A stretch of DNA of 64,000 nt from a virus (IMGVR_UViG_3300045988_133735); one strand, 5' to 3'; positions 7,500-27,793 are shown, numbered from the stretch's first letter. Numbers and translations: made by a program. Notes: generated by a model from the sequence alone, not told the origin.

Positions 7500-10058
7500 T
7501 CATTTCACCCTCGCCTCATAAATTTTTGGTTCAGCTAAACTATATCGTTGACCAAGGTATTCATACTTGCCATTCGGGTCGTGAACTGGTAACTGCACTG
7601 GAACGGGTTTGATATTTTCAACTACGCCAGCACCAGCCATGTGCCACAAGAACTTTTTAAACTTGTTAGGATATTTTTCATAGCACAGCACCACTAGAAT
7701 GTTAGCCAACTCACGAACATCGGGGCAGACCAGCTTGCACTTGTTACGATACACGTTATAGATTGCTTGCCAGTTGGTTTCATAGGTCTTTGCTTCTTCT
7801 TTCGTCATGATGCCTTCAAGCTCTTTACGATAGAGTTTCCAGTTTTTAGCTTTCTTTTCGAGCTCTAACTGGTTCTTGCGGTATTTATTAAAGTCCAGAA
7901 AGATGGCTTCGATCTCATTAAATACATCCTGATCATAGCCGATTTCAGAATCGTACATTATGTGCCAATTAAAACTGCCAGCGGGCTCTTTATGCCAACG
8001 GACACCACGCTCCCAACGCTCGAGACTCATACAGAGCAGATTCATATTGCTATGTGCTTTACTGAGATTATGTAAACGTGCGTAGTAAGGGCCATTGTAT
8101 TTGAAAAAATAAGGCATTCCGCTTGCTTTTGCCCATTTGCTGATTTGACGAGGAATAGGGTAGAGTACGCCAGTTTTTGCGAAATCCACAGCTTTTCCGT
8201 TTGCAACAGAGAGAAGATCAATATAATCTTCATACAGTTGCTTGGTCTCTTCTGTACGAGCAACACGATTGTGATATACGGAAGCCATATTGCTAATCTC
8301 ACCAATCATGCTTTTCAACCCACGAAGAGTACAGGCAAGTTTATTTTCAAGGTTATCTACCTGAGCGAGACTGGTGACTTTATCTTCGATATCGATCGTA
8401 ACATATCCATCGTCTGGAATAGTATTGATAATAATTGATTCATTTGATAACAAGGTAAGGTCCCCGTCGTAGTCGGCCCCTGAAAGTCTCGCAGGAACGA
8501 TAGATTTTACATTGATCATACAGCAATTAACGAGATGATTGCAATATTTTTGAGTCAAATCGTTATCAACACCCTTTAATTTGACATGTTCTTGGTGGCA
8601 GATGTGGGGGTTGCGTCCCAATGCGCGTTCACCCAAAATGACACCACGTCGATCAAAACTATAAAATTCATCAGAATCAAGGCACCCATTTATGGGAAGG
8701 CCAGCAATTGCTTCCATTAATGCAATTTGGTCAGGAAGTAGAAATTTAAATGTTGCATCAAAAAACAATTTTCCACACTTGAATCCATTACGATATTTAT
8801 CAAGAAGGCTATGAAAATAATCTTTAACGCTAGGTTCGTGAGCCATATCAGGATTACGAATAATAGCAGCGACGTAATGATTAAGAGGTTCAGTATTATC
8901 AGCCAGCGCACCAAGAAAACAGTATGTAAAAATAGGGTCCCCACTTACGATTTTTTCATACCAATCTACAGACTTATCCGCCAAGTGTTTGAATTCTTCA
9001 AATGGAACTGAGGAAAGATCTTGTATGAGCTGATAATTACCAAGGCTAACTAAATTTTCCTTATCTGCTTGATAGTTCCATTTTGCAATGCCTAACGCAT
9101 GATCGTATTTTAAGGAGAGCTCTTTATAGTGATTCCAGTCACTTACAGTACCGGTATGCTTAAAATACTTATAACCTTTATACATACTTTCACAAGCAAT
9201 AAACATTGGCTCAGCATCACGGGTTACAGAATGCTTTACACCCCAAATATCAGTAATTTCGGTAACACCACGTTCTTCATAAAAAGCAACATAGTCCATT
9301 TCATTAAAAACGCCTTTAAAATATGGCATACGGAAAACCATGCTATTAATTCGTTCGGTTGTTCCAATCCGCTGTTCAACTTCACGCATCAAGGAAGGAT
9401 GTGCGATGCCACATCCGTCAAACATGTTGATTTCAATATCTGTTTCTTTTTTAGCAATAGCCTTTTGCTTCCATGTGCGTTTAGTGCCAGTTTTTCGATC
9501 TGTAAATTCAACCTCTTCATCATGGACATATTTGATTTTTTGATTCGGAATAGTCGTGAACGTATCTGGAACAATAACAATTTTTGGGAACCATTCTCTG
9601 AGTGCAATACAATGGCAACTCGAAAGTACAAGACCACGATAAGCATAGTATTTGCTTAAAACGGTTGGATTGTCACTAAAATCCAAATCCATACTAATTC
9701 GTTTATTTACTTCTGGCCAAACATGAGATTCAACCATTGAAAAAATAAATTGGCGAATCATAGAGGCACTTCTGTCTCCAAAAGAGAAATGATATTTACC
9801 GATTTTTGCGCCATGCTCAATTAAGTGACGAACTACTTTTGGTTTGTTTTGCGCTCCAGTTGCGTCGATAAATACAATAAATGGATTATAATCATCATAG
9901 TTATTAGATACGATTCTAATTTGACGAAGTAACATTGTATCAGATTGAAGCACCTGATATTGAATATCGTTCGCAACTTCAGTAGGAATCTTATAATTAT
10001 ATTTTATAAACAAGCTTAGAGGATACTTGCGTACTGTATAACTTTTAGGACTGATCAA
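7500..10058 (-). CDS. YonO-like single-subunit (two-barrel, RdRP-related) RNA polymerase candidate
   Basis: 852 aa containing SGADYDGDLTLL, a DxDGD metal-binding loop like that of cellular RdRPs and SPbeta YonO. The size is close to YonO and it lies in the late block. Confidence 0.5.
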   Translation of the reverse strand: MISPKSYTVRKYPLSLFIKYNYKIPTEVANDIQYQVLQSDTMLLRQIRIVSNNYDDYNPFIVFIDATGAQNKPKVVRHLIEHGAKIGKYHFSFGDRSASMIRQFIFSMVESHVWPEVNKRISMDLDFSDNPTVLSKYYAYRGLVLSSCHCIALREWFPKIVIVPDTFTTIPNQKIKYVHDEEVEFTDRKTGTKRTWKQKAIAKKETDIEINMFDGCGIAHPSLMREVEQRIGTTERINSMVFRMPYFKGVFNEMDYVAFYEERGVTEITDIWGVKHSVTRDAEPMFIACESMYKGYKYFKHTGTVSDWNHYKELSLKYDHALGIAKWNYQADKENLVSLGNYQLIQDLSSVPFEEFKHLADKSVDWYEKIVSGDPIFTYCFLGALADNTEPLNHYVAAIIRNPDMAHEPSVKDYFHSLLDKYRNGFKCGKLFFDATFKFLLPDQIALMEAIAGLPINGCLDSDEFYSFDRRGVILGERALGRNPHICHQEHVKLKGVDNDLTQKYCNHLVNCCMINVKSIVPARLSGADYDGDLTLLSNESIIINTIPDDGYVTIDIEDKVTSLAQVDNLENKLACTLRGLKSMIGEISNMASVYHNRVARTEETKQLYEDYIDLLSVANGKAVDFAKTGVLYPIPRQISKWAKASGMPYFFKYNGPYYARLHNLSKAHSNMNLLCMSLERWERGVRWHKEPAGSFNWHIMYDSEIGYDQDVFNEIEAIFLDFNKYRKNQLELEKKAKNWKLYRKELEGIMTKEEAKTYETNWQAIYNVYRNKCKLVCPDVRELANILVVLCYEKYPNKFKKFLWHMAGAGVVENIKPVPVQLPVHDPNGKYEYLGQRYSLAEPKIYEARVK

Positions 10059-10061
10059 GTT

Positions 10062-10964
10062 TTATCCCACGCTCCTTTTTGTTTTCTTTCCTCCTGGTGG
10101 AGTTGTAATTGCAGCAACGTCATCCCACCCATTAAATATTCGATTATAAATTACACCTCTCGTTAAACCTAGATTAAGAATATCCGCCCATTCAGAATAT
10201 GTATGAGTCTCTCCATTATAAGTAACGTGATGAGTGTCTGTTTTATTATTATTTTGTGTTTTTATATCAGTCCATCTACAATTCTCTGGACAATAATTGC
10301 CATTGACATCAATTCTATCAATTGACAAGCCAGAGTTTTCTTTATAACCATTTGCAAAAGACCACTCACAAAATGCCAATGCACTATTTTTCCATTCATC
10401 ACAAACCGTTATACCTCGTGCACCATAATGGGGATAACTTTCACACTTTTGATTATAACAACGGTCCATCATACCAGAGTATGTTTGATACATTGGTAAT
10501 TTCCAAGCTCCGCCTTGTGTTGCATTAATACATCCACAACTTTGCGTATATCCATGCCTTAAAAGATCAGTTCTTGCAACGGTTTCATTCCCACAATCGC
10601 ATTTACATCTCCATTGTGTGGTTGTTTTCCCTTTGGGCGAAATATAATCTGCCGCTCGTTCAATAACTGTTAATTTCCCAAATCGTTTTCCGGTTAAATC
10701 AATTAGACGAGAGCCCTTATATTCGCAATTCTTATCTCCACAAGTTTTTGCCATCCCTCGTCTTAAAATATCATCTCTTGCAATTCTCGTTCGTCCACAA
10801 TCGCACTGACAAACCCACTGCCTAAATTTTTGACGACCATTATATTTGATTACTTTTTCATCAAGAGCTTTAATAACTGTAAGATGTTCGAATTTCTTTC
10901 CAATCATTTTTTCTCTTGCTTTTATATCTGCTGGCGTGACTTCAATAATTGTTTCATCAGCCAT
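10062..10964 (-). CDS. HNH-like endonuclease / DNA-binding protein with duplicated Zn-ribbon modules
   Basis: 300 aa. The module GKKFEHLTVI..WVCQCDCG..TCG is duplicated. C-terminal YGARGITVCDEW ... SIDRIDVNGNYCPENCRW..QNNN. Confidence 0.45.
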   Translation of the reverse strand: MADETIIEVTPADIKAREKMIGKKFEHLTVIKALDEKVIKYNGRQKFRQWVCQCDCGRTRIARDDILRRGMAKTCGDKNCEYKGSRLIDLTGKRFGKLTVIERAADYISPKGKTTTQWRCKCDCGNETVARTDLLRHGYTQSCGCINATQGGAWKLPMYQTYSGMMDRCYNQKCESYPHYGARGITVCDEWKNSALAFCEWSFANGYKENSGLSIDRIDVNGNYCPENCRWTDIKTQNNNKTDTHHVTYNGETHTYSEWADILNLGLTRGVIYNRIFNGWDDVAAITTPPGGKKTKRSVG

Positions 10965-11508: not shown

Positions 11509-11809
11509 CGCCGTAATCCTCCTCACTGTCGTTATCGTATTCTTCCAACCCATATAGCTTATGATATAAATATCGGGTCAAAGAAGGGGACATAGGCGTA
11601 TAGTCTTCCATCCAGAGCGTATCATACAGTGAAGCATCACCAATAACTTCCTGCCAGTCCGCGTATACTTGAATCGCGTCAATGATATTTTCTACTGTGA
11701 CACTATAATTACGCACCGCATCAACTACGGCGAATCCAATATTAAAAATATCCTGTTTTGAAAATTCTTCTTCTTTCATAATAGTCCTCCTTATAGAAGC
11801 GATTTGCAC
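11501..11809 (-). CDS. hypothetical acidic protein
   Basis: 102-aa ORF, co-oriented. Confidence 0.5.
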   Translation of the reverse strand: MQIASIRRTIMKEEEFSKQDIFNIGFAVVDAVRNYSVTVENIIDAIQVYADWQEVIGDASLYDTLWMEDYTPMSPSLTRYLYHKLYGLEEYDNDSEEDYGDE

Positions 11810-12012
11810 CGAAGTGGCTTCTTTAGTTTATCTAATTGGTTGTAAATATCTGCGATTTGCTCTTCTATAGTTTTTATTCTATCCCATGCGGATTCTTCTA
11901 CAGGTTGTTCTTTGGGTATGACAATAGCTGAATTTTTTGCTAAATCGCTCGATATCCAATAACCATAAGGGTTCTCCGGATTTCCAATAAAATCTAAGTC
12001 AATAACATCCAT
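11791..12012 (-). CDS. small protein with C-terminal C-[KRH]-S-L-L tail (CKSLL)
   Basis: 73 aa ending KKPLRCKSLL-stop. Confidence 0.6.
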   Translation of the reverse strand: MDVIDLDFIGNPENPYGYWISSDLAKNSAIVIPKEQPVEESAWDRIKTIEEQIADIYNQLDKLKKPLRCKSLL

Positions 12013-12024
12013 TTGGCGTCTCCT

Positions 12025-12252
12025 TTACAGTAAACTGTGACATACAAATGATTTCTTTTTCTTTATTTCAATACTTACTTCAGGACACCGCTCACGAAAA
12101 AAATCATATATTGCTTTATCTGAAATGCAATCAAGTCCAACTAACTGTCCATCCGAAATTAACAATTCATCATCATAAGACCTGATACTGTCTCCGCGAG
12201 CGACCGCATCTATCAGAAGTCTTGCTCCTTCTTCTGTCCATTCAATAATCAT
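12025..12252 (-). CDS. small protein with C-terminal tail (CHSLL)
   Basis: The start is taken at MIIEW (ATGA overlap with the upstream stop). Ends KKSFVCHSLL-stop. Confidence 0.6.
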   Translation of the reverse strand: MIIEWTEEGARLLIDAVARGDSIRSYDDELLISDGQLVGLDCISDKAIYDFFRERCPEVSIEIKKKKSFVCHSLL

Positions 12253-12461
12253 AAAAGGCTCCTGCAAATAAACGATTTCGAATTTCTAATCATATACACA
12301 ATTTGATCGTATATTTCTTTATCGGTTCTTCCCCAAAATCCATAGTATTCAAAATCTGGTTTAATTTTGCTTTCATCTATATCAGGTGCAAATGGATAAA
12401 GCTTTTTATATTCTCTGACGAAACCTTTAATCATATTGAGTTCATCAATCTCATCTCTCAT
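12249..12461 (-). CDS. small protein with C-terminal tail (CRSLL)
   Basis: 70 aa ending SKSFICRSLL-stop. The tail codons TGC AGG AGC CTT TTA TGA contain the SD and ATG of the next gene. Confidence 0.6.
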   Translation of the reverse strand: MRDEIDELNMIKGFVREYKKLYPFAPDIDESKIKPDFEYYGFWGRTDKEIYDQIVYMIRNSKSFICRSLL

Positions 12462-12865
12462 AATAGGCTCCTACATCTGAGTGGCCGTCTACTGGTTCGA
12501 ATAATATCTTCCAAGCATTCTGGCACGACAGAAAACCCTTTAAACAAATCAAACGTATTGCGGTATATTAAATCATCTATATTTATCTGTCGCATTTTAT
12601 TTTCACAGATGTATCGAACATCAGCTTCTCCATACAGCTTAGTGAATAATTTGCAATATTCAAACGACTTGGCCAATCCAAGATCTTCATCAAAGTAGAA
12701 CATAGTACACTGTGCATTCATTTTACTATAGTCAAACTTTTCACGAAATTCATCCGGCGATTTGCATATTACGATTACTTTGCGGTGTTTTTGTACAGTG
12801 TCTAAATTATCATACCAGTTACATACTGCTTGGTAGTTCTCTGGCTTTACGAATAATACTCTCAT
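12458..12865 (-). CDS. protein with C-terminal tail (CRSLL)
   Basis: 135 aa ending RRPLRCRSLL-stop. Confidence 0.6.
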   Translation of the reverse strand: MRVLFVKPENYQAVCNWYDNLDTVQKHRKVIVICKSPDEFREKFDYSKMNAQCTMFYFDEDLGLAKSFEYCKLFTKLYGEADVRYICENKMRQINIDDLIYRNTFDLFKGFSVVPECLEDIIRTSRRPLRCRSLL

Positions 12866-12895
12866 TGCGGTTTCCTCTGTGGCGCTGCGGCGCTC

Positions 12896-13315
12896 TTATA
12901 ACAAGCTGTGGCATACTAGATTCTTTTTATTTCGTTCATGCCATGATGCTTTGATTTTTACGACATGATCTGGGGTCCACATATAGTCAAGCTCGATAGG
13001 ATGTGCTAAATCCAGATTGCTATCCTTATTAACAAGTCGGTAATAATTCATATCATTAAGCTGATCGAATTCTTTTGCAAGCCGTGTCGCTACATCACTC
13101 ATGGAATTATATGTATACCCGGGTCCAAACCATATCTGATGAAATATTTTTGAACCATCGTTTGCTCTTAAATACCACGCTCTAAGATCGCGATACGATT
13201 TGAATGGCATGACCCACACCATGTTGTTGTCACTTAATGGGACATAGATTCCGTTTTTGGCGTCATAATTTGCAGAAGTCAGCATTGCGACTCTGGCGGT
13301 TACAGTGTAATTCAT
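12896..13315 (-). CDS. protein with C-terminal tail (CHSLL)
   Basis: 139 aa ending KKNLVCHSLL-stop. Confidence 0.6.
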   Translation of the reverse strand: MNYTVTARVAMLTSANYDAKNGIYVPLSDNNMVWVMPFKSYRDLRAWYLRANDGSKIFHQIWFGPGYTYNSMSDVATRLAKEFDQLNDMNYYRLVNKDSNLDLAHPIELDYMWTPDHVVKIKASWHERNKKNLVCHSLL

Positions 13316-13575
13316 AGTAAACTCCTACACGTGAGAGGTTTTAAATACCATGGCGTTGGTTTTGGCTCCCACTGGTTAAACAAACGTTCAAAGTAGAACC
13401 TTTCGTTTTTCTCGTCCAAGCACAATCTCACGTCGTGATAATTCACATATTTAGCGTCGGTATCGGCGAAACATTTTAAAATAGCGGACATCTCATTGTA
13501 AGTTTCTTTGAAGTAACTGGAACGTCCCGTCTGTACGTAATCAATCGCTTCTTTTATAATTTCTTCTCGTGTCAT
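13312..13575 (-). CDS. small protein with C-terminal tail (CRSLL)
   Basis: 87 aa ending LKPLTCRSLL-stop. Confidence 0.6.
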   Translation of the reverse strand: MTREEIIKEAIDYVQTGRSSYFKETYNEMSAILKCFADTDAKYVNYHDVRLCLDEKNERFYFERLFNQWEPKPTPWYLKPLTCRSLL

Positions 13576-13602
13576 ACTATTGGGTTCCTCTAACTGTTGA
13601 AT

Positions 13603-13950
13603 TTATAATAGGCTATGGCAAACAAATGATTTTTTAGATTGCATTGTATACTTGCCGACTAATTGAAGATATTTTTTGTAGATTGCCTCTGCGGCGTCTC
13701 CATCAATTGTTTCTATATGTTGTTCAGACATTATATCGACTTTGAAACGTTCTATTGATGAATCAAGTATGGAAGCTAATTCTGAATCATAATGTATGTA
13801 TCTGCGGTCTACATCGACATGAATTACAATAGAATCTATTTTTTTATTAAGTTCTTCGCTAAGCTGTTCACAGATATCCTTACTTGCGAGTTCTAGTATT
13901 TCTTTCTCATTCTTCTTGTAATTAGTCATTCCAAAAACATCTGTTATCAT
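13603..13950 (-). CDS. protein with C-terminal tail (CHSLL)
   Basis: 115 aa ending KKSFVCHSLL-stop. Confidence 0.6.
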   Translation of the reverse strand: MITDVFGMTNYKKNEKEILELASKDICEQLSEELNKKIDSIVIHVDVDRRYIHYDSELASILDSSIERFKVDIMSEQHIETIDGDAAEAIYKKYLQLVGKYTMQSKKSFVCHSLL

Positions 13951-14432
13951 AGCAAACTCCTACAGGTCAGTTGCACTGTTGGTCTTCCTATGGTTGGATC
14001 GTCCGCGTCCTCGATTTCTGGGTGAAACGCAACTTCGGATGGATCATATGTAGCTATAGAGCAGGCGGCAATATTACGACCTCCTATGATATGTTGCATA
14101 CATAAATCAACATCGTCGATTACAACTTGTTTTGCGTTATATCCAAAGCTGGCGAGTTGGAAATCTAAGGCGTTAAAAACTCGAATAGTCAGTCGTTTTC
14201 CCTCAGTATCAACATAGACTTCTCGCGAATCAACTCTGTATCCTCTATATGTCCATTTCCCGCAAGATGATTCGCATAAAAATATTATTGTTTTTGTCAC
14301 TAGCTCCACATTAAGAGATGTTGGTACAATAATATCACAGTCATTTTCAATTGCGTATTTACATATTTGATAGGTGCGACCACCGCCGCGTGGGGCGAAT
14401 ATTTTATACATACTTTGTAAAGCCTCTATCAA
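13947..14432 (-). CDS. P-loop-like protein with C-terminal tail (CRSLL)
   Basis: 161 aa with FAPRGGGRT and VVIDDVD (Walker A/B-like). Ends TVQLTCRSLL-stop. Confidence 0.55.
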   Translation of the reverse strand: MIEALQSMYKIFAPRGGGRTYQICKYAIENDCDIIVPTSLNVELVTKTIIFLCESSCGKWTYRGYRVDSREVYVDTEGKRLTIRVFNALDFQLASFGYNAKQVVIDDVDLCMQHIIGGRNIAACSIATYDPSEVAFHPEIEDADDPTIGRPTVQLTCRSLL

Positions 14433-16957: not shown

Positions 16958-17289
16958 CATATCTATATTATACACCAGATTTTTGTTATTTGCAAGCGAA
17001 ATTGCATATATTTTCCGGGGCGATACGTTGTTTTTTGGCGATGCTGCGCAGGACGGCTGCTTAATGGAGCGTTTAACGGCGTTTATGCGCGAAATGTGCG
17101 TTTTTAGTGGCATTTTTAACGACTTTAGGACAAAATTTAACGTTTTTGATCAAAAAATGAGCGAAATTTGATCGATCTGGGAAGGTGATTTTGGTCTTTG
17201 TGGGGCACTAGCGTGATGAAATAACAATGATAGGGGCAATTTGTAACAATATAATACCATGCAATTTTAAACGATAATACGTTGTTTAC

Positions 17290-18500
17290 CGGGTGAGGCT
17301 TCGGGACGTTTTTGAGCTTTGCAGCAGTGCACGGTGATACTTGAAAATACTACAGTGTACGATGTGCTGTGTGATTTTGATGGGTGGAAATAGGGGCTGC
17401 AGAGCGGTGGTTGACATGTCTGTGGGGATCAAAATTGGGAAGTGAGGTGCTGCACTGATGGATGTAGAAATGTTGTGAACTGCGTGGCGAGCTCGGGAGG
17501 TTTGGGACGTGATGGGGAGATAGAACAACTAAGCCCTTCGGGCTTCGCGCGGGCTGACCCCGGATTTTCAACCTGCCCCCCTCTTGCCCTGTCTATCATC
17601 CATTTTTTCTAGGATTCATGCGGCTTTTCGGCTAATATGACCTTTTGTTAAAAGGTGGGATTAGGTAGTCCCTGAATACGGAATTTATACCTATTTATAT
17701 ATAGGCGACTTCCATTCTGTTTTTGTGGGCGGTGGATTTTGCCGTTTGTGCGCTTGTTGCAAAAATAAATAGATGGTCTATACTGTAGACACTCCAAGGG
17801 GAGCGGGAAACACCGGGAACGGCACCCACACCCCGGGGAGTAGTCGCACCTTGAAAATTGCAAAGTTTGGATTTTCCCATGTGGGCGGTTTATACCGCGC
17901 CGGGTATCCGGTCAAGGTTTATGCCTTGCCATTTTCAAAACATGGGTTTCCTATCTGAGCGATTAGTGCGCCCAAACCCCGATGGCCAAACATTACAGGC
18001 ATAATTCCCAAGAACGTGGGAGAAGTGCGGGGGGCGGAGTACCTTGAAAACTGAACAAAAGGCAGAACCTAAGATAACACCACGGGGACTGTTATGCGTA
18101 AGCATAGTTTTGTAGAAAACGCCAAGGCCAGAGCTGGCGATAATAGATACAATACCAAAGATAGCAACGGTTGTTTGATGGCGTAGAACCGCCTAGAGGA
18201 GAAAAAAGCTCTTGTACCACCCCTACTATAAGCTAGAATAGCGGGCAAGGGTGCAAGCAAAAGAACACCATTAGTTCCAGATGGTTAAAGTGCGCCAAGA
18301 CTAACTAACGCACGATGGACAGCACACGGGCTGTATAAGTCCGTGCCATAATGGAACACGGGCAACAGTGCAATGGCCTAGAGAAAAGCACATACCCAAA
18401 AGCATATAAGCTACAAGTGTGGCTTTACATAAAAGAGACGGTCATCGGTATGCACTCTCCAAAAGCGTACCGTACCAGAGCGCTAAACAATCCGGTTTGG
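17290..18500. other. long gene-free, GC-richer region; candidate large structured RNA, origin or genome-end region
   Basis: No credible ORF in six frames. UUCG- and GNRA-capped helices are present (AAGCCC-TTCG-GGGCTT at about 17534). A roughly 30-nt repeat GGGG..AGT..ACCTTGAAAAYTG occurs at 17836-17860 and 18030-18053. Confidence 0.3.
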
Positions 18501-18532
18501 TGCAAGTTTTTATAAGATGAGAGGTAACTATT

Positions 18533-19384
18533 ATGCTGAAAGTTTATGCTGACTACGATGCCATTGCTAAGGCGGGCAAGCTGAACGAACTGACCATCCC
18601 TGAACTGGTAAAGTTCTTGAACGACCAGAAAACCGTTCTGACCGCTGAGCAGTCTCAGAACGTCACCGCTACGCTCAACAAGGCAGTCGAAAATTCCAAC
18701 AAGGCCGCCTGTGATGCAAAGTGTGCTGAGTTCTGTGCTATGGAACGCGCTGAAATGTGGCGCTCCTACGCTCCTAACCCCTACTACGCCGGCGTGAAGA
18801 TCACCATTGACCCCAAGAGCAATGCTCTGTCCACCCAGGATGCAAAGATGCTTATCAAGTTCAAGACCCTCGAAAAGTATTACCAGACCATGAACGCTGT
18901 TGAAACCAACGACAAGGGAGAGCCTATGCCCAACAAGGCGGTTTCTCTCTGCTCCGATGGCCGTTACGAAAAGCTGATTATGCTGTTCAACGGTATGCTC
19001 TCTGAGGAGACTGCAACCGAACTCAACGCGGCCAAGATGGTTCGTAGCACTAAGGTCGAGGAGACTCTCAAAGATATGGGTTTGGACTGCTTTATCGGCA
19101 CTGTCAATAAGGGCAAGCGCCTTGCGCAGCTCCAGGCTATTTGGAACACTATGCTCCCCGAGGAACTGTCTGCAACTTGCACCGCGCTGTCTTGTGACGT
19201 CAAATATCTCAAGATTGCAGCAAACCGCGCAAAACAGGGCTCTGTCAAGGGCATCGGCGACAAGGCCATGATTGACGAGATTGTTGTCACCATCTCTAAG
19301 GGTCTGTCTTTTGATGGCAAGGCGCGTTCCTCTAAGTACTACTTTGCAAGCAAGAGCAAGTTCTTTGCCAAGGCTGAGCAGTAA
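18533..19384 (+). CDS. hypothetical protein (strong codon bias, first gene of the forward block)
   Basis: 283 aa with a GAGAGG RBS. High GC3 creates long antisense shadow ORFs. Confidence 0.65.
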   Translation: MLKVYADYDAIAKAGKLNELTIPELVKFLNDQKTVLTAEQSQNVTATLNKAVENSNKAACDAKCAEFCAMERAEMWRSYAPNPYYAGVKITIDPKSNALSTQDAKMLIKFKTLEKYYQTMNAVETNDKGEPMPNKAVSLCSDGRYEKLIMLFNGMLSEETATELNAAKMVRSTKVEETLKDMGLDCFIGTVNKGKRLAQLQAIWNTMLPEELSATCTALSCDVKYLKIAANRAKQGSVKGIGDKAMIDEIVVTISKGLSFDGKARSSKYYFASKSKFFAKAEQ

Positions 19385-19502
19385 CACGCACAATCGGATA
19401 CCCTTTCGAGGTCGCACCGTTCAAAGCGGCCTCTTTCCAACGCAGTATGCGTAGCGTCTTAGAGTGTGGCGCATTTTGCACACTCAGAAAAGAGGTTTTA
19501 CT

Positions 19503-19943
19503 ATGGAAAGTTATAACGTCAGACTGATGTGCGGTGCGCAGTTTACAGACGTACCCGACAGTGTCATGTTTCAGATGCTGGAACAGCTCAACGTGCGAGA
19601 CGTTGCAAGCTATGAGACAGGCGAAGTCCTGTACCAGAGCAAGGCCGCCAAGGCCGAGGATGGCAAGGTCAGTGGTATCACTCGTGCAAGCGTCGCCGTT
19701 CGTGGCGTTAAAGAGTACGACGAACCTATCGTTTTGCCCATGGCGAAAGAGTGGCTTATCATCACTCATGCCGACATTCCTACTTGCTCTTACAGAACTG
19801 ACGATGAACAGTATGCAACGAAGCGTTTCGAAAGAAGTGTTTCTAGCATGTGGTACGATGGCCCGTTCTATGACGAAGTTCGTTTGTATCACAACGGACG
19901 TGTCATTCGTGCGGCTGTTCTGGGACACGAAATCGTTCTGTGA
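19503..19943 (+). CDS. hypothetical protein
   Basis: The start is taken at MESYNV, after AAAGAGG. Confidence 0.55.
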   Translation: MESYNVRLMCGAQFTDVPDSVMFQMLEQLNVRDVASYETGEVLYQSKAAKAEDGKVSGITRASVAVRGVKEYDEPIVLPMAKEWLIITHADIPTCSYRTDDEQYATKRFERSVSSMWYDGPFYDEVRLYHNGRVIRAAVLGHEIVL

Positions 19944-20350
19944 AAAGGGACGTTGAACAGATGTACATGATTCAAGAAAAATTCAATTGCTGAAAGGAGC
20001 CCCGCCGGGTATGAAACTCCAAATAATACATAGTGTCCTGAGCATGACGTAAAACTGCTTGTGTCCGCACAATGCTATGAAATAATGGACAATACCATTA
20101 TATGCGGGAATACGTAGGGACAAACCATAGCATTCCACCTAAGTCCTGCACTACCAAAGGGCTGAAAAGGCAAGTGCAAAATATATAAATGGCCCTGATT
20201 ATATGCAAGTTTATGAGCGTAGCCTTGCATGTATGAGAGATAGGTATGGCAACCGAAAATGCCCGCTCACTCCCGCAAATTCAGAACGCCTTGACGTGGC
20301 GCGGGGGCTTTAAACTAAGATTCTGAAAAGAAAGAGAGGTAATGCGCTAA

Positions 20351-20938
20351 ATGTTTAAAGACAGAAATGGCATAGTTATCCAGTGCGTCAATCGTAAAGG
20401 AATGACGTACAATGGGTGCAAAGTCCCGTATATGGGACTGTACGGCACGCTCAACGGCAATGAATTTGTTGCGGAGCCTCGTCTGAACGTGAAAACCGGA
20501 GAGATGCGACTCAAGCATCGTGATTTAAAAACCAAGGCTCGCTGGGACGACATTCCCGACAAAAAAATTGTAACTCTCATTGTCTTAGCTGCAAAAGCCG
20601 GATGTGTTCAGCTTTATAAGTGGGATACAAAAATGGTTTCTCCTGACCAAAACAAAGCTAAAAAAGAAGCTGCATTTTGGTGTAAAGAAGCCGCAAATCC
20701 TGATACCATTCGCAGGTTTAAGGTAAAAGTTAAGTACCAAAATTCGCCCATGACAACTCACGAATATGGAACAAGAAGCCATATCCTTTATGGCGAATCC
20801 ATCGACATGAATGGCAAGATCAAAAAAATCGAACAAGTACAAAATTATATGGACGGAACTGGCATGAGTTCTTCTTTTGATAACAGAGATAGAAGGCCAT
20901 TAAATCCGGTTTTTCCAGTCAAAAGTGGAAAGCGTTAA
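20351..20938 (+). CDS. hypothetical protein
   Basis: 195 aa with an AGAGAGG RBS. Confidence 0.55.
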   Translation: MFKDRNGIVIQCVNRKGMTYNGCKVPYMGLYGTLNGNEFVAEPRLNVKTGEMRLKHRDLKTKARWDDIPDKKIVTLIVLAAKAGCVQLYKWDTKMVSPDQNKAKKEAAFWCKEAANPDTIRRFKVKVKYQNSPMTTHEYGTRSHILYGESIDMNGKIKKIEQVQNYMDGTGMSSSFDNRDRRPLNPVFPVKSGKR

Positions 20939-20942
20939 TGAG

Positions 20943-21200
20943 TTATTTATTGTTACCGTGATTCCATTGACCGTCTGAACCTAATTTTGGACTTGAATCA
21001 TTCCCCAAATTTGAGTTTAAACAAGTGATTTTATCGGATTGAAGCTGTTTGAGTTCTTTCGGCGTAAATCGAACTTTGATAAATGTTCCATTCTTTTTCG
21101 CAATTCCTTGTCGTTTGTTACATAAATGCTTATAACATAATCCATCTTGAAAAACTGGGTTGTTACATTTAGGTCTATAACAAGTTAATTTCGGTTTCAT
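20943..21200 (-). CDS. small Cys/His-rich protein (the only reverse gene inside the forward block)
   Basis: 85 aa with CYRPKCNNPVFQDGLCYKH and a GAGGTG RBS. Confidence 0.45.
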   Translation of the reverse strand: MKPKLTCYRPKCNNPVFQDGLCYKHLCNKRQGIAKKNGTFIKVRFTPKELKQLQSDKITCLNSNLGNDSSPKLGSDGQWNHGNNK

Positions 21201-21331
21201 AGTATCACCTCTTAGCTAGATTATAGTTTAAATTTTTAATAAAATCAATTGGTCAACCCCAACGTCATTCGATTAAATTCGGTTGACGTTTTCTTTTTAC
21301 CTCTTTTCTCTGCTCCAAAAGGAGCGATACT

Positions 21332-21366
21332 GGGCGATTCACGGTACCAGGGCAGACGAAACCGTG
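21332..21366 (+). promoter_or_regulatory. conserved 5'UTR element copy A (GGGCGATT + hairpin CACGG-TACCAGGGCAGACGAAA-CCGTG)
   Basis: One of three copies. The loop sequence is conserved and the stem covaries. It lies 44 nt upstream of the ATG at 21410. Confidence 0.55.
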
Positions 21367-21409
21367 GCCAATGCGAAAGCATCATACACACACACGAAAG
21401 GACAAAAAA

Positions 21410-21736
21410 ATGAAAATTATTAACTGCACACCCCACGCTATTTCTTTCGTCGCCGACAACGGTGATGTCATTCGCACAATTCCTGCAAGCGGAATCCTGC
21501 CTCGTGTGGCTACCTCTTACACGGTAGCGGTCACTGTTGACGGTATCCCTGATGAAATCACTGTGTATGGTGATGTCGAAGGACTTCCAGCAGAAGAGCC
21601 CGAAACAATTCTGGTCGTGTCTGCCCTCGTGGCAAATGCGTGCAAGAACCGCAAGGATCTTCGCATTCCCGGGCGACAAGTTCGTGATGAAGCTGGCCAT
21701 GTTATTGGATGCAAGAGCCTGAGCCGTCCTTGCTAA
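21410..21736 (+). CDS. hypothetical protein (C-terminus ..IGCKSLSRPC)
   Basis: The start is taken at MKIINCTPH, after GAAAGGA. 108 aa. Confidence 0.55.
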   Translation: MKIINCTPHAISFVADNGDVIRTIPASGILPRVATSYTVAVTVDGIPDEITVYGDVEGLPAEEPETILVVSALVANACKNRKDLRIPGRQVRDEAGHVIGCKSLSRPC

Positions 21737-21986
21737 AAAGAGGTGTAAGCCATGGCAATCATTGCAATCGAATCCGCCCTCGATGTCGCAATTATGTTTG
21801 GCGACAAAGAACTAGCGGAAATCTACACCGAAGCCTTAGAAGAGGCGGGCGTCCACTACGAAAGCCATGCCAAGTGTTGGGCATGACGAAAGAAGCGAAA
21901 ATATTATTATAGCCTTAACTATGATTGTAGTGTGGGCTGTGGTATAATAAGGGAAGAAAACCCTTAAAGAAAGGAGAAGAAACATC

Positions 21987-22349
21987 ATGGATGCAAGAAT
22001 GATTAGTTTTTGGGGTTGCGAAACTAACCCATGCGCAAACCCTGATACGGCAAATAACGGAGGGGGATACTCTCAACCGTCCGGTGGAATCCTTGTTGCT
22101 CTCGAAAACGGTGAATATCTTATCGTCACCGTGGATGATATGTCTTGCGGCGATTTTGGCAGCAGAATCGGTTGGACTATCGACAGTTCAGACAGTCGCA
22201 GATGGGGCGGCTGTTATGGCACCATGAACGATGCTATGGTGGATAACGAATGGACGGAAGAGTCTCTGGATTCCGTGTCTGGTGTGTACGGGATTGATGC
22301 CCGTGCAATGTTGTCGGATGCAATTTTGGCTGTGCATATTGCCGCATAA
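21987..22349 (+). CDS. hypothetical protein
   Basis: 120 aa with an AAAGGAG RBS. Confidence 0.55.
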   Translation: MDARMISFWGCETNPCANPDTANNGGGYSQPSGGILVALENGEYLIVTVDDMSCGDFGSRIGWTIDSSDSRRWGGCYGTMNDAMVDNEWTEESLDSVSGVYGIDARAMLSDAILAVHIAA

Positions 22350-22375
22350 CGATAACGGAATGTTTCCGTCAAGAA

Positions 22376-22411
22376 GAGTCTTGTAAGTTAATTCTTGCAA
22401 GGCTCTTTTTT
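22376..22411 (+). terminator. Rho-independent terminator
   Basis: GAGTCTTGTAAG-TTAATT-CTTGCAAGGCTC (12 bp including 2 G-U pairs) followed by TTTTTTATTT. Confidence 0.75.
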
Positions 22412-22587
22412 ATTTGAAAGGAGCATTATTATGGATTACTTTAGCAGTCAGACCATTTTCTTTTGTGGTATCGTTGTTGGTATTGGATTTGCCGTATCGA
22501 TTCAGCTCGCAATCAAAGAGCTGTTCCACCAGCGGCGTCCCCACTAACAGCGTCTCACCAGTGCACACAGAAAGGAAGCGTATCATC

Positions 22588-23142
22588 ATGAAAGCAATTC
22601 GGAAATCCCTCCAAGGCGTAGCAGTCGTTATCGCAAGTATTTTTGCAGCGGCTACCGTATTTGCAATCCCTGTTAATGCAGCAGAACCCTCAACCTACAT
22701 CCAGTCTGGCACGATCTGGAGTGAAAGCGCCGGCGAGTACCAAGTACTCGATGATGCTGGCGAGTTGTGGGGCTTTACCGCTGGCGTTTATGACTATGTC
22801 GTTGGACAATACGTCGAGATGACTATGTCAGACGCGGGGACCCCAGATAACATCTACGACGACACTCTCATTGCCGTGTCTTCTGTATGGCGCGACTATG
22901 AAAGCGACATCGTTGGCCCCTTTGGCTACTACGTCGTTGATGGATGGATTGCAACCGATAACACAAGCTGCCTCAGCTGCTGGGTGAGGGATTCTTACGG
23001 ATCTTTATGGTTCTGGAATGCCTATTGCCCCAAGCAGAAGGGCGAGCACGTTGTTCTCATTATGAACAGCAATGGCACACCCGATCAATTCTCAGATGAT
23101 TCTATCGAGGACATCTTGTGGAGCGAAGACGAGGTAGACTGA
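22588..23142 (+). CDS. secreted protein
   Basis: The start is taken at MKAIRKSLQGVAVVIASIFAAATVFAIPVNA (signal peptide), after AAAGGAAG. Confidence 0.55.
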   Translation: MKAIRKSLQGVAVVIASIFAAATVFAIPVNAAEPSTYIQSGTIWSESAGEYQVLDDAGELWGFTAGVYDYVVGQYVEMTMSDAGTPDNIYDDTLIAVSSVWRDYESDIVGPFGYYVVDGWIATDNTSCLSCWVRDSYGSLWFWNAYCPKQKGEHVVLIMNSNGTPDQFSDDSIEDILWSEDEVD

Positions 23143-23278
23143 AATGGATTCTATGAAATTTGATATGCTATCTATTGCGGCCGCTCTGTATGAAGGCGGC
23201 TGGCGTTCCACTATTGATGACTACGAACGACTTGTAAGAGACTATCGCATGTCCCAGAAAGAAGAGAGGTAATCTATT

Positions 23279-23773
23279 ATGAATCAATTGAAAGTACTTC
23301 AGTATGCACAGGCAGCCGCTATGGACAAGTGGTGGCTTTATGATGGGCTTGCCGACAAGTTCACTGGCGAAAAGGCTGGCGAGATGGCACGTGAAATGGC
23401 GAACAAAGTCATGAATGACGTCAAAGAAATCGGCGTCATGATTGATGCAGAAGAAAAGCGTCTCCGTGCCGAGGCTGAAAAACAGCGCAAGCAGGAGCAG
23501 GCCACAAGAGCGCCGCAGGCACAGCAGGAGAAAGCGCCGCAGCAGCAGGAGCGTCCCACTGCCGGACGTATTGTGGATGATGGCACGAAATGGACTGTTG
23601 CTATCCGATATAAGGATGGGAGCGAAACCGTTTCCCGATTCTCTCATGAGGACATCGCCCGCAAGGCATACGAAACAATCCGGATGTTGGATAGGGGGAT
23701 TGCCAAATCGAATCTTTCCCGTATGACCTTGACCCACAAGAACAGCGTCGTGAAAGCATACGAAAGAGATTGA
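23279..23773 (+). CDS. hypothetical protein (central Q/E/K-rich coil)
   Basis: 164 aa with an AGAGAGG RBS. Confidence 0.55.
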   Translation: MNQLKVLQYAQAAAMDKWWLYDGLADKFTGEKAGEMAREMANKVMNDVKEIGVMIDAEEKRLRAEAEKQRKQEQATRAPQAQQEKAPQQQERPTAGRIVDDGTKWTVAIRYKDGSETVSRFSHEDIARKAYETIRMLDRGIAKSNLSRMTLTHKNSVVKAYERD

Positions 23774-23797
23774 CATGATGGAAAGGAGCACAACCGT

Positions 23798-24199
23798 ATG
23801 ATCGTCAGTGAAATCTACGAAACCATGGCGGGCGACCTTTATGGCGTGGTTCTGAATGAGGATATCAAAATCATTCGGGTTGTCAAAATCAATGACCGCG
23901 AACTTACCCCTGACTTTTTCCGGCGAGCAAGAATGGGATTCCTTACTGAGCATTCGTATGATCGGTTGCCCAAGGAAAAGATGTGGCGGTGTATTGAATC
24001 AAACTGCCGTCTGGTAGCAACCATTACAAACTGCCACGGATTTATCGTTCATGCAGACCACGATATGACCCGCAGCAGCCGTAAGATGTTCGGTAAGAGA
24101 GCTCGAATGAATTACGATCGCAGATACAACGGAGGCGATTATGGTGGAACAATTCACAGTCAAGCCAACTACTGCCGCAAAGCAAACCAGTTCGCCTAA
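23798..24199 (+). CDS. hypothetical protein
   Basis: 133 aa with an AAAGGAG RBS. Confidence 0.5.
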   Translation: MIVSEIYETMAGDLYGVVLNEDIKIIRVVKINDRELTPDFFRRARMGFLTEHSYDRLPKEKMWRCIESNCRLVATITNCHGFIVHADHDMTRSSRKMFGKRARMNYDRRYNGGDYGGTIHSQANYCRKANQFA

Positions 24200-24401
24200 A
24201 GCAATCGCAGTGTGTCCTATCTCGAATTTCGGCGGTTATGAAATCTATGAATGTGACGATGAGCGCGTTCATGTAGGTATCAACAACGGCGATACAATCG
24301 AGGACTATGGGACACGCCAAGTCAAATATACGTCAAGCGGGCGTACGTACTTCAATCTGGGCGGGCAGCGTCACTATCTTGATGATTTCATCAGAGTTTA
24401 A
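24141..24401 (+). CDS. hypothetical protein
   Basis: 86 aa with a GGAGG RBS. Overlaps the previous ORF by 59 nt. Confidence 0.45.
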   Translation: MVEQFTVKPTTAAKQTSSPKAIAVCPISNFGGYEIYECDDERVHVGINNGDTIEDYGTRQVKYTSSGRTYFNLGGQRHYLDDFIRV

Positions 24402-24413
24402 GGAGAATAGAAA

Positions 24414-24692
24414 ATGCTTGAATGGCAAGAGCTTTGTAGCCACGCCATCTGGGTCACAGTTGGAATCTTTGTTGTTCCATATGCTGGGCTTCAGATTTGT
24501 CGGGGGTTTTATTACCTAGATGAGTTCCCGCGATTCAATCGAGTCTGTCGGGGGTTGTATCGTGCAGTGAAAAATCTAGTGGATGGCATCGTAGCCGTCT
24601 ATCAGGATTGTCCGTGTGAATTCGTTCTGTATACCACAGCGGCGATTGTAATCATTGCTGTTGCGATAAATAAAGCGGCGGCACTCATTTAA
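24414..24692 (+). CDS. small membrane protein
   Basis: 92 aa with two hydrophobic segments. Confidence 0.5.
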   Translation: MLEWQELCSHAIWVTVGIFVVPYAGLQICRGFYYLDEFPRFNRVCRGLYRAVKNLVDGIVAVYQDCPCEFVLYTTAAIVIIAVAINKAAALI

Positions 24693-24736
24693 GAGTACGC
24701 CACTACTACACACATCAAAAGAGAGAGGTAAGAAAA

Positions 24737-25156
24737 ATGTTGTTTTATCGTACTAAGCGTGAGGCCAACAACAAACCCATGTATCGCGGCAAGGGCAAGC
24801 GCAAGGATGAGGAAATTTGGAGTATCTACATCGCAGACGAACTGTTCACCGAGGCCGAAGTCAAGCGGTTGAATCTGAATCTGGCTTACCTCGAACAGGT
24901 TGAAATCTCCCGGCGGCAGACACACCATCAGGGCTGTTATCGTGTGGCGAATTTTGACGCCAACATTACGGCTGTGAAACCGGTAAAGCAGGCTCCGGTC
25001 AAGATTCTTCCTAAGCAGGCCGAGATTGAAGTTGTCAAGCGTCTGAATGACCGGCGCGTATATAAGAAGCATAAGTGCCTTTGCCCCGACAATCGGCCGA
25101 CGACCAAATTCGTTCGATACCGTGTTGCAAATGATGCGGCGGTGGCAAACAAGTAA
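24737..25156 (+). CDS. hypothetical basic protein
   Basis: 139 aa with an AGAGAGG RBS. Confidence 0.5.
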   Translation: MLFYRTKREANNKPMYRGKGKRKDEEIWSIYIADELFTEAEVKRLNLNLAYLEQVEISRRQTHHQGCYRVANFDANITAVKPVKQAPVKILPKQAEIEVVKRLNDRRVYKKHKCLCPDNRPTTKFVRYRVANDAAVANK

Positions 25157-25801
25157 GAATTTCCAGCAATTTCCTACATACATAATGCGAGTCCAGATGA
25201 TATTATAAACGAAGTTTTCGCAGAGGGAACTCCGGTAGTGTGAAAACGCACCGCCGGGGTTTAATGCGGCTACTGGTTCTGCAGAACTGGTACTGGTCCC
25301 AAGCCCAGAAATGCAATCGCAAGTGGGGCACATAGCGTCACGATCGAAGCGGTAGCACAAACAGAAGGGCGCTCCACTGATCCTAATGAAATTGACACTG
25401 ATTTGATGTGATGGCCACACAAATATAATCAGAAGACTAAAGTAGATTAGGCAGTTCCACATTAAGTGAGCGAAACTAAACGAAAGGAGGGTTTATAGCT
25501 TGAATTGTAAAATCAGTTACCGCTCGCTAGGAGTGGTCTTTGGTGCAAGGGTCGCGTCTTACTCCAATGAGAAAATTTTCATGGGATGGCGATACAAACT
25601 GTTTTGACGTTTAACTGAAATTTCCAAATTAAATAGAATTGACGTTGCAAGTGCTCGTTGCATCCGAGCATAAGTTCGCATCATACATACGAGTTTAGCG
25701 GTAGTCGCAAATAGGCGTAATCGACCTATAAGGTTCGCTATAATGCGGGGCTGGGTGATTCCCGAACGGACAAGTTAAACGTATGTTAAGGATAAGAAAC
25801 C

Positions 25802-25836
25802 GGGCGACTGGTGGTACCGGGGCAGACGTAACCACA
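25802..25836 (+). promoter_or_regulatory. conserved 5'UTR element copy B (GGGCGACT + hairpin GTGG-TACCGGGGCAGACGTAA-CCAC)
   Basis: Second copy of the element. It lies about 50 nt upstream of the ATG at 25885. Confidence 0.55.
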
Positions 25837-25884
25837 TCCACTACTTGCGTAGCAAACACACAAAAAATGAAAGGATACACAATT

Positions 25885-26112
25885 ATGGACATCACAAAAC
25901 TGATTGAATCTCTTCCGTTAGAAATCAAAGACTACGTCATCGACTGGCAGGATATCCAGATGGGTGAGCAGCATGGAATGTGCGTGATGCTTGACTGTAT
26001 CTTGTCGCCGGGTCAGAAAGCGCTCCTACAAGGCAACAGGCATATCATGGGATTGGAATGTGTTGCTCAGTACGCCCCTGAAATCAAGCATTCTTACTTC
26101 TACATGGTATGA
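25885..26112 (+). CDS. hypothetical protein
   Basis: The start is taken at MDITK, after GAAAGGA. An alternative ATG exists at 25867. Confidence 0.5.
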   Translation: MDITKLIESLPLEIKDYVIDWQDIQMGEQHGMCVMLDCILSPGQKALLQGNRHIMGLECVAQYAPEIKHSYFYMV

Positions 26113-26170
26113 GCGCTGCTATGTATAATCCGCAAAGAACGCAGCGGGTAAAAAGGAGGAAGTTGTAACA

Positions 26171-26431
26171 ATGATGGTGTATATTTTTGATAATTCTTAT
26201 TCCAGGCGAGCCGAAGGTCAGCCGTGGGTGATGTTTAATCATTACAATGGGGATGTTTATGGCAGTCGTGAGCGTGCTATGAAAAAGTTGGCCGAAATGG
26301 CAAAATCGGTGAGTGCAGACCCAGAGTGTTATGACGTTGAATTTGATGGCAATCTTCGTTATCGTTGGAAAAACTGGAGCGGTGATGAGTTCGAACGCTA
26401 TATTCAGATCGAATCAAGAGAAGTGAAGTGA
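26171..26431 (+). CDS. hypothetical protein
   Basis: 86 aa with an AAAGGAGG RBS. Confidence 0.55.
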   Translation: MMVYIFDNSYSRRAEGQPWVMFNHYNGDVYGSRERAMKKLAEMAKSVSADPECYDVEFDGNLRYRWKNWSGDEFERYIQIESREVK

Positions 26432-26637
26432 GGGCCTGCAGCATGGATGATTATGCAGACGCTAGCTATCAGCTCCAGCATTACAAGATTACATTTCATG
26501 GGGAACTTGAAGGTAATTGGCTGAACTTTAAAACATATCACCGTGCATTCGCCAGCTACGATTGTGCACGAAAGTGGGCGGCTAATGTGTTATATCGAAA
26601 TCGCAAATATCGCGGCGTTAAGATTGAAATGGAATGA
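26428..26637 (+). CDS. hypothetical protein
   Basis: 69 aa. GTG start overlapping the upstream stop. An alternative ATG exists at 26443. Confidence 0.45.
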   Translation: MRACSMDDYADASYQLQHYKITFHGELEGNWLNFKTYHRAFASYDCARKWAANVLYRNRKYRGVKIEME

Positions 26638-26653
26638 AAGTGGCGTAACAACT

Positions 26654-27784: not shown

Positions 27785-27793
27785 GAGTAAGAT

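Follow-up and report, generated by a model that had tools for sequence, protein, structure and literature searches.

A portable C-terminal peptide with lineage-specific dialects on unrelated proteins of a human-gut phage

Introduction

We analyzed a 64,000-nucleotide stretch of viral DNA (IMGVR_UViG_3300045988_133735; hereafter, the window), part of a human-gut phage of ~145 kb, in which genes on both strands end in the same C-terminal peptide, C-[K/R/H]-S-L-L, immediately before the stop codon. The window encodes TerL, a metallophosphatase, a YonO-type single-subunit RNA polymerase and PhoH, along with a tRNA cluster, a transfer-messenger RNA (tmRNA), a retron-type reverse transcriptase, a tyrosine recombinase and an NAD-salvage block. 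Eight genes that carry the peptide, which we call the tail, form an array lying upstream of, and co-directional with, the genes for RNA polymerase, metallophosphatase and TerL, with head genes just past the window. Among GenBank phages, no close annotated relative of the window was found. The nearest cultured phage, Thomasclavelia phage TR-TP1, shares just the RNA polymerase (37% identical), TerL and the metallophosphatase, its corresponding block also includes lysis genes, and no recurrent C-terminal motif was found in it. A preliminary description of the window had proposed that the tail is a portable tag on heterogeneous phage proteins and had listed several candidate functions. Here we describe the occurrence of the tail in the window and its relatives, where it takes the form of concerted, lineage-specific dialects, and we argue that it is probably a docking motif read by a single, lineage-specific receptor.

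Results

An open reading frame (ORF) listing and a six-frame scan both place C[KRH]SLL, followed by TAA or TGA, at the end of 14 ORFs in the window, eight of them consecutive on the minus strand and six on the plus strand, as the preliminary description had it. In six-frame translation all 14 occurrences of the motif directly precede a stop, with no internal copy. This count is unmatched in shuffled controls, which the earlier account had proposed as a check: 200 shuffles of the window gave a mean of 0.035 occurrences and a maximum of 1, and the expectation from amino acid composition is 2.4e-4 per 139 ORFs. All 14 tagged ORFs have a Shine-Dalgarno sequence and a plausible start, and the tagged ORFs are called as genes in two public gene catalogues.

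The bodies to which the tail is joined are diverse. Clustering reveals no mutual relationship among the eight minus-strand bodies, and they are unrelated, as had been claimed. On the plus strand, five of six tagged genes are clear paralogues of one SH3-like family and the sixth (38916-39140), SH3-like in appearance only, clusters apart. Searches of the tagged bodies against Pfam, PHROGs and PDB sequences returned just phrog_7488, of unknown function, which matches five of the 14 tail proteins, weak coiled-coil matches and one weak SH3_15 match. Most of the bodies are acidic. One body had been credited with P-loop-like motifs; what we find for the protein read from 14411 down to 13947 is a weak resemblance to a terminase ATPase subdomain, given by Foldseek for the predicted fold of residues 11-108. 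This protein belongs to body family 0, the one family modelled with AlphaFold2, and its last 45 residues, with a predicted local distance difference test score (pLDDT) below 50, are predicted to be disordered.

The tail is conserved as a peptide. Counting back from the last residue as position -1, its Ser residues use AGT, AGC, TCA and TCG, both Cys codons occur, and Leu is encoded by five codons across -7, -2 and -1 (the last two positions use four each). When pairs of tails were compared with random draws on the window's codon usage, codon sharing was close to random at -5 (42 observed versus 45.6 expected) and at -2 and -1 (19 versus 18.6 at each), and therefore it is the peptide and not the DNA on which selection acts, in agreement with the preliminary description. 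AGG is over-shared at -4 (22 versus 11.2), because in four of the eight array genes the Cys-Arg-Ser codons (TGT/TGC AGG AGY) double as a Shine-Dalgarno sequence (AGGAG); in the same four genes the Leu-Leu-stop codons (...TATGA) hold the ATG of the next gene. At 12249-12461, for example, TGC AGG AGC serves as the Shine-Dalgarno sequence and TTATGA contains the next start. This arrangement accounts for just part of position -4 and does not explain the motif as a whole. It could, with the tyrosine recombinase found among the tagged genes, be taken to mean that the tail is an annotation artefact or a DNA- or RNA-level signal, that is, a translated gene-boundary element such as a Shine-Dalgarno sequence plus start, a recombination linker or an attC-like site, but Ser alternates between AGY and TCN, the Shine-Dalgarno sequence lies downstream of the stop in 10 of 14 tails, and such an origin is extremely improbable. 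A DNA repeat or recombination site (attC, boundary linker or integron) is ruled out by the codon analysis and by intergenic gaps of 3-30 nucleotides (nt), too short for attC-like sites.

Related loci were taken from IMG/VR as the 10 kb on either side of PhoH, ThiF, TerL and DUF8224, which gave ~250 loci and 5.1 Mb. By clustering, the tagged genes of these relatives fall into ~25 unrelated body families, and array content differs between genomes. Families 0, 1 and 2 are orthologous in 61-66 loci, with the tail virtually never absent. In the PhoH-locus families it is missing just in a few truncated ORFs or single-residue variants, and the family of 11791-12012 carries it in each of the 14 related PhoH loci where this family was found. 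For family 0, 118 of the 120 homologues retrieved from databases have the ending [CF]-x-S-[LM]-[LI] and the other two are fragments, so the orthologues of related phages, which the preliminary description had named as a check, do retain the tail. Tagged genes number 13-19 per genome, a lower bound drawn from the two regions seen (7 + 12 on contig 127729, 5 + 12 on 115253, 7 + 6 on 119762, and 14 in the window), and the tag marks ~10-15% of the phage's genes.

The SH3-like body, by itself, is widespread: there are 3,820 matches, often with 2-7 tandem repeats and no tail, and distant single-domain homologues have other endings directly after a conserved WTDEMFE. The tail is therefore an appended, portable module, and with ~25 body families and tail-less SH3-like relatives the proposal of a portable tag on heterogeneous proteins is borne out. 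A second phage group with DUF8224, represented by 24 loci, showed no recurrent C-terminal motif. Tail-less single-domain SH3-like homologues from other phages (P0280 and P0304) have recurring ends of their own, ...KVKGIFNGLEE and ...KVGKVFNSLKA, a hint that this domain may bear different C-terminal tags in other phage groups.

The tails come in three dialects (Table 1), K-x-[LF]-x-C-[KRH]-S-L-L in lineage A, x-E-C-x-C-[ED]-S-L-L in lineage B and Φ-x-F-x-S-L-L in lineage C (Φ, hydrophobic), and each genome uses one dialect for all its tails. Within the 5.1 Mb of related loci the A motif is terminal 397 times and internal 17 times, the B motif 710 and 5 times, respectively, which suggests recognition of the free carboxylate; the tail is strictly C-terminal. 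Pairs of loci lying 25 kb apart on one contig agree in dialect (contig 127729 for C; 120088, 110647, 119057 and 115253 for B; 119762, 114761 and 125079 for A). Orthologous families 0, 1 and 2 take on the dialect of the genome that hosts them. The same is seen for single genes, as orthologues of 12458-12865 in lineages A and B have tails that follow the genome's dialect, and lineage B orthologues of 13603-13950 end in ...SEYYCESLL. At least three independent orthologous genes have changed alike at the same positions after the lineages split, without homogenisation of the DNA, and coevolution with one common reader of ~9 residues is therefore the most economical account. The switch from basic to acidic residues disfavors binding to membranes or nucleic acid, and likewise a slowly evolving host pocket (for instance in ClpX or the β clamp), with the proviso that an adaptor might act in between.

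Table 1. Residues at tail positions in the three dialects (236 distinct proteins for A, 478 for B and 26 for C)
Position	Dialect A	Dialect B	Dialect C
-9	K 60%	mostly N/D/S	variable
-8	P/Q/S	E 87%	variable
-7	L 55%, F 41%	C 93%, Y 6%	L/V/I/F
-5	C 100%	C 100%	F 100%
-4	K/R/H 94%	E/D 76%	variable
-3	S 97%	S 83%, P 15%	S 73%
-2	L 100%	L 100%	L 100%
-1	L 98%	L/V/I	L/I

The tagged genes and other features of the window are collected in Table 2. Lying among the tagged genes, between those at 38916 and 45585, is a cassette for a putative ubiquitin-like (Ubl) protein, a protein that we call p505, a JAMM protease and an E1/ThiF protein. The Ubl-like orthologues end in a conserved K-[HLM]-D-N-A plus 1-4 variable residues, a layout that would be expected for JAMM trimming and E1 activation of a Ubl. 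The AlphaFold2 model of p505 (pLDDT 84.7) has no PDB fold match, and its sole match in a viral library is one uncharacterised gut phage protein. An identical copy of the ThiF protein occurs in 437 collection blocks, and contigs of 266 and 352 kb are among the 23 carriers listed; these exceed the phage in length and may therefore represent concatemers or integrated prophages, from which the host could be learned. One related contig binned in an Oscillospiraceae metagenome-assembled genome gives a weak hint that the host is possibly a member of this family.

Table 2. Features of the window
Feature	Coordinates	Strand	Length (aa)	Tail	Remarks
Tagged gene	11791..12012	-	73	KKPLRCKSLL	coiled-coil-like acidic body
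Tagged gene	12025..12252	-	75	KKSFVCHSLL	
Tagged gene	12249..12461	-	70	SKSFICRSLL	
Tagged gene	12458..12865	-	135	RRPLRCRSLL	
Tagged gene	12896..13315	-	139	KKNLVCHSLL	
Tagged gene	13312..13575	-	87	LKPLTCRSLL	
Tagged gene	13603..13950	-	115	KKSFVCHSLL	
Tagged gene (family 0)	13947..14432	-	154 or 161	TVQLTCRSLL	starts at ATG 14411 or TTG 14432
Tagged gene	38916..39140	+	74	PTKLTCKSLL	small SH3-like body
Tagged SH3-like paralogue	45585..45845	+	86	QKRLTCKSLL	
Tagged SH3-like paralogue	46679..46951	+	90	KKPFTCKSLL	
Tagged SH3-like paralogue	46968..47252	+	94	PKNLICKSLL	
Tagged SH3-like paralogue	47262..47519	+	85	AKPLCCKSLL	
Tagged SH3-like paralogue	49872..50144	+	90	AKCFVCRSLL	
Ubl-like-p505-JAMM-E1 cassette	39898..43371	+			candidate partner only
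Ubiquitin-like gene	39898..40137	+	79		orthologues 76-82 aa; β-grasp as judged by eye
p505	40281..41798	+			unknown fold
JAMM protease	41785..42681	+			HSHx7SxxD, canonical motif HSHVDFGVTPSSRD; weak PADLOC JAB match
E1/ThiF domain	42697..43371	+			Pfam match
RNA polymerase, YonO type, with upstream HNH gene	7500..10964	-			RdRP fold
Sparsely coding region	17000..31400				~14 kb
Twister-P5 ribozyme match	25219..25308	+			47.1 bits versus Rfam gathering score 37.6
tRNA cluster	32967..37698				6-7 tRNA genes
tmRNA	33158..33544	+			within the tRNA cluster; Rfam 96 bits
Radical-SAM-like gene	34283..34954	+	223		CxxxCxxC and SGGGDP; no Pfam match; phrog_17662
Retron-type reverse transcriptase and sequence downstream of it	43666..45580	+			best PADLOC models RT_II-A and RT_III-A, E 2e-37
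Tyrosine recombinase	45860..46675	+	271		Phage_integrase family; amid the tagged SH3-like array
NAD+ salvage/reconstitution block	51680..57108	+			phosphoribosyltransferase-like protein, NAMPT, macro domain, NAD synthase, isochorismatase/nicotinamidase

Several neighbors of the tagged genes deserve mention in their own right. An HNH endonuclease gene lies directly upstream of the RNA polymerase gene and is present in few relatives only; the identities of polymerase, PhoH and TerL are mosaic relative to the rest of the genome, and several of these genes adjoin HNH genes. In loci L110, L136, L137, L139 and others, the TerL match extends over 10001-12014 in place of 10001-11755, and the ~255 extra bases suggest that an intron, a small intein-like element or the like has been inserted in the terminase gene. 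The sparsely coding region has few long ORFs, weak Shine-Dalgarno sequences and no Pfam matches between densely coded flanks; several of its ORFs are all the same conserved in relatives. The reverse transcriptase gene is followed by a very acidic ORF of 112 aa and then by ~340 nt without a convincing ORF, which might hold a non-coding RNA. The tyrosine recombinase is kept at its place in the array in all lineages, with 52-61% identity. The NAD+ block, absent from the tail-less DUF8224 phages, is likely a countermeasure to NAD-depleting defences. A scan for promoters and terminators gave counts indistinguishable from shuffles.

Discussion

The simplest reading of these data is that the tail serves as a short linear docking motif, portable between proteins and placed at the C terminus, and that it is recognised by one receptor, which is specific to the lineage and probably phage-encoded; we think this probable. 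The core of the motif would be Φ(-7)-x-[C/F](-5)-x-S(-3)-L(-2)-L(-1)-COOH, presented in family 0 after a linker that is disordered in the predicted structure. A single receptor would serve all tails of a genome. As that receptor appears to differ between phage lineages, it is more likely to be encoded by the phage than to be a conserved host protein. Hydrophobic residues at -7, -5 and -1 and Leu at -2 are compatible with an extended β-strand, and the tail probably binds as an added strand with its free carboxylate.

As to the destination, we tentatively favor the assembling prohead or virion, with the tail as a cargo-targeting signal; this is possible rather than likely, and we rank it ahead of docking to the Ubl cassette, a degron and a host-hub ligand, in that order. 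The cargo would be small accessory proteins whose repertoire changes quickly, probably effectors for host takeover or anti-defence; once loaded, they would enter the next cell together with the DNA. Cargo loading is favored because the internal proteins of T-even phages and the encapsulin peptides are the closest precedent, and the array being co-directional with TerL and the head genes may be counted in its support.

A number of observations weigh against this reading. No receptor has emerged from domain, linkage or charge searches. Pfam, PADLOC and PHROGs, applied to ~90 window ORFs, revealed no PDZ, clamp, TPR or tail-specific protease domain. The subtypes of PhoH, RNA polymerase and TerL do not track the dialect, and the structural module follows it only as a general lineage signal, being what defines the lineages. 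Portal, scaffold-like, capsid and neighboring proteins show no net-charge shift between lineages A (basic) and B (acidic) that would compensate for the tails, and what looked like a shift in a 332-aa protein upstream of TerL disappeared after control for ORF boundaries. The tail is missing from every head- or portal-proximal gene within 10 kb downstream of TerL. The tagged bodies are for the most part acidic, unlike the basic internal proteins of T4 (PMC9026906). An accessory island with the tRNAs, the retron-type reverse transcriptase and the NAD-salvage genes contains half of the tagged genes and looks early rather than late, and 13-19 or more cargo species would be unusually many.

A somewhat less probable destination is the Ubl cassette itself. 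The bodies would bind targets and the tail would dock onto the Ubl-p505-JAMM-E1 machine, most plausibly onto p505, so that targets are modified or de-modified, much as F-box or PRANC adaptors of eukaryotic viruses work. Its fuller version, in which dozens of interchangeable small recognition domains, SH3-like paralogues and coiled coils among them, each with its own host or phage target, feed through a common tail into a clade-specific machine for phage-encoded Ubl targeting, with tail and receptor coevolving as dialects, is slightly more doubtful. The cassette is interleaved with the tagged genes, occurs in each of the four lineages with tails (A, A2, B and C) and is absent from the 24 tail-less DUF8224 loci; those phages, however, also lack many other genes, so that the co-occurrence is weakly specific. 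p505 is as restricted to the clade as the tail, since a set of 5.8 billion proteins contains just 13 clusters of it and none of these lies on a contig longer than ~150 kb, but it has no recognisable E2, E3 or peptide-binding fold. Between lineages, p505 (39-49% identity) and JAMM (44-52%) diverge far more than the DUF8224 and NAMPT flanks (85-95%), yet the whole island has diverged, reverse transcriptase and recombinase included, and the signal is not specific to the cassette; AAA, at 60-100% identity between lineages, does not track lineage. Expansion and hypervariability (36-47% identity), both seen in the SH3-like family, would be expected of target-recognition modules. Other comparisons are harder to accommodate. 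The lineage B contig L242 has lost JAMM, E1, reverse transcriptase and recombinase and keeps at least seven intact tails; two recombinant contigs (L252 and L256) carry three or four tails with no cassette within 10 kb; the cassettes of A and A2 are only ~50% identical, while their tails are nearly one dialect; and a second tagged array lies 25 kb away.

Docking of tails to the cassette is possible, and direct action of E1 or JAMM on them is unlikely. The cassette encodes its own putative Ubl with a conserved C terminus, and this would be the natural substrate of its E1 and JAMM. The tagged proteins, with bodies that are SH3-like, terminase-ATPase-like or coiled coil, end in Leu-Leu and not in Gly, Ala or Asn, and do not resemble Ubl or E1 substrates. 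The suggestion in the preliminary description that the E1/JAB enzymes act on the tails is accordingly not upheld, given also the tails that outlast JAMM and E1 on L242. Its companion suggestion, that the radical SAM gene acts on tails, fares no better: the CxxxCxxC motif is confirmed, but a homologue is found in related phages without tails within 10 kb, and the gene is not tail specific.

Timed destruction is an improbable alternative, ranking below docking to the cassette. Here the tail would be a C-terminal degron that hands proteins to host ClpXP, Lon or a Ctp-type protease, or to a phage adaptor, and effectors would be confined to a single phase of the infection. C-degrons already known act in this manner, among them ssrA with its terminal LAA, and the strictly C-terminal motif, its non-polar last dipeptide and the flexible linker are in keeping with this. 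The phage also encodes a tmRNA and so engages a C-terminal tagging pathway, but the unusual tag predicted for it, ANYNSYRCAA, is unlike the tail, and no tmRNA is found at the syntenic place in L242. Furthermore, ~9 conserved residues, dialects that reverse charge and an invariant -5 exceed what ClpX-type recognition of the last two or three residues needs, and host proteases are conserved, so that concerted dialect shifts would be unexpected unless the adaptor were phage encoded.

Less probable still is mimicry of a C-terminal added-strand motif, by which the tail would recruit or titrate a host hub such as the β sliding clamp (QL[SD]LF type) or a PDZ-type protease. Clamp-binding pentapeptides include QMSLL and QLSLF, the last three positions of which are matched by S-L-L-COOH. 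The hydrophobic spacing noted above would suit such a strand, and tail-less SH3-like homologues end in what look like short linear motifs (...DLLSLYEGK and ...DLMRLFMP). The tail nevertheless does not fit a clamp ligand, as the defining Gln is replaced by Cys or Phe in 100% of tails and position 2 of the pentapeptide (-4) is K/R/H, E/D or variable, not hydrophobic. As for PDZ domains, the class I rule ([S/T]-x-Φ) that the preliminary description invoked is formally satisfied, with S-L-L-COOH in 97% of A, 83% of B and 73% of C tails and -3 occasionally Pro, Thr, Asn or Gln; for a partner, Pfam scans of the ~90 window ORFs gave no match to PDZ or another known C-terminus-binding domain. Bacterial PDZ proteins are nearly all extracytoplasmic, and the tagged N termini are not obviously signal-peptide-like by eye. 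Rapid lineage dialects disfavor a conserved host target, and 13-19 or more proteins directed at one host pocket are hard to rationalise.

Chemistry at the tail is very improbable. The Cys could in principle be a handle for an autoinducing peptide (AIP)-like thiolactone, lipidation or a radical-SAM crosslink, or the C terminus could be adenylated and conjugated by E1. A Cys five residues from the C terminus matches the AIP ring size, and E1, JAMM and a CxxxCxxC protein are all encoded in the window. In the type II cyclic oligonucleotide-based antiphage signaling system (CBASS), moreover, Cap2 is reported to provide an example of E1-type action on the tail of a protein that is not a Ubl, namely cGAS (PMC10097602). 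Against this, lineage C has Phe in place of Cys in all 19 tails seen (7 near PhoH and 12 near DUF8224), which renders thiolactone, lipidation, radical-SAM crosslink and disulfide capture unlikely; the last residue is a bulky Leu rather than Gly or Ala; and the Ubl of the cassette and the tail-less radical-SAM-like homologue count here as well. The cysteine handle of the preliminary description, whether AIP thiolactone or CaaX-like, is thereby largely refuted.

If the tagged proteins go to the virion, they would represent a large injected effector repertoire in abundant gut phages, together with a packaging tag of nine residues. If instead they go to the Ubl cassette, the result would be a modular adaptor system for ubiquitin-like modification, the first in a bacterial virus. 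In either case the dialects amount to a natural specificity experiment, as any candidate receptor must tell A, B and C apart, and the tag is a simple marker for pulling functionally linked dark-matter genes out of gut viromes.

Comparison with known systems

The T4 capsid-targeting sequence, encapsulins and microcompartments offer known examples of terminal address peptides on unrelated proteins. In the literature, we found no description of the present tag, with reviews of T4 capsid targeting alone being relevant, and to our knowledge no C-terminal phage tag on this share of the genes, with concerted lineage dialects, has been reported.

PDZ-binding C-terminal motifs and the F-box-like tails of poxvirus ankyrin/PRANC proteins bring many recognition modules to a single hub through one short motif. 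The tail resembles them as one short C-terminal motif on many modules, and S-L-L-COOH formally fits the PDZ rule. Such tails hijack host hubs in eukaryotes, whereas the dialects described here point to a phage-encoded partner, and no PDZ, Skp1-like or other hub was found in the window scans. In type II CBASS, the Cap2 E1-E2 and the Cap3 JAB are reported to act on the disordered C-terminal tail of the cGAS/CD-NTase and not on a β-grasp Ubl (PMC10097602). The likeness lies in the E1 and JAMM encoded beside the tagged genes. The differences are that our tail ends in Leu-Leu and not in Gly or Ala, that the cassette has its own Ubl, that CBASS is a bacterial defence while the cassette is phage encoded, and that one contig keeps its tails after the loss of E1 and JAMM.

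Encapsulin cargo-loading peptides come closer. They are C-terminal stretches of ~10 residues that follow a flexible linker on unrelated cargo and bind in extended form to the interior of an HK97-fold shell, and their motif varies with shell lineage. The tail shares with them a conserved C-terminal peptide, diverse bodies and, in the family 0 model, a predicted disordered linker. The encapsulin consensus is centered on Gly-Ser-Leu and need not be terminal, unlike Φ-x-[C/F]-x-S-L-L, and encapsulin cargo genes adjoin the shell gene, whereas the tagged genes lie at least 13 kb from the capsid gene.

The internal proteins of T-even phages are small and unrelated, the set varies between relatives, and they share a 10-residue capsid-targeting sequence, which suffices to package foreign proteins (PMC9026906). 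This sequence lies at the N terminus, where the prohead protease removes it at an L/I-x-E site, in contrast to a tag that lies directly before the stop and has no L/I-x-E-type cleavage motif next to it; T4 internal proteins are basic and the tagged bodies acidic; and the two peptides have no sequence similarity. The parallel lies in the design. In IPI, IPII and IPIII, as in the tagged proteins, a terminal peptide of ~10 residues is the sole part common to small unrelated proteins, and the protein set differs between related phages, as the array does here. The T4 peptide, moreover, can be transplanted, and a single assembly component recognises it (PMC9026906).

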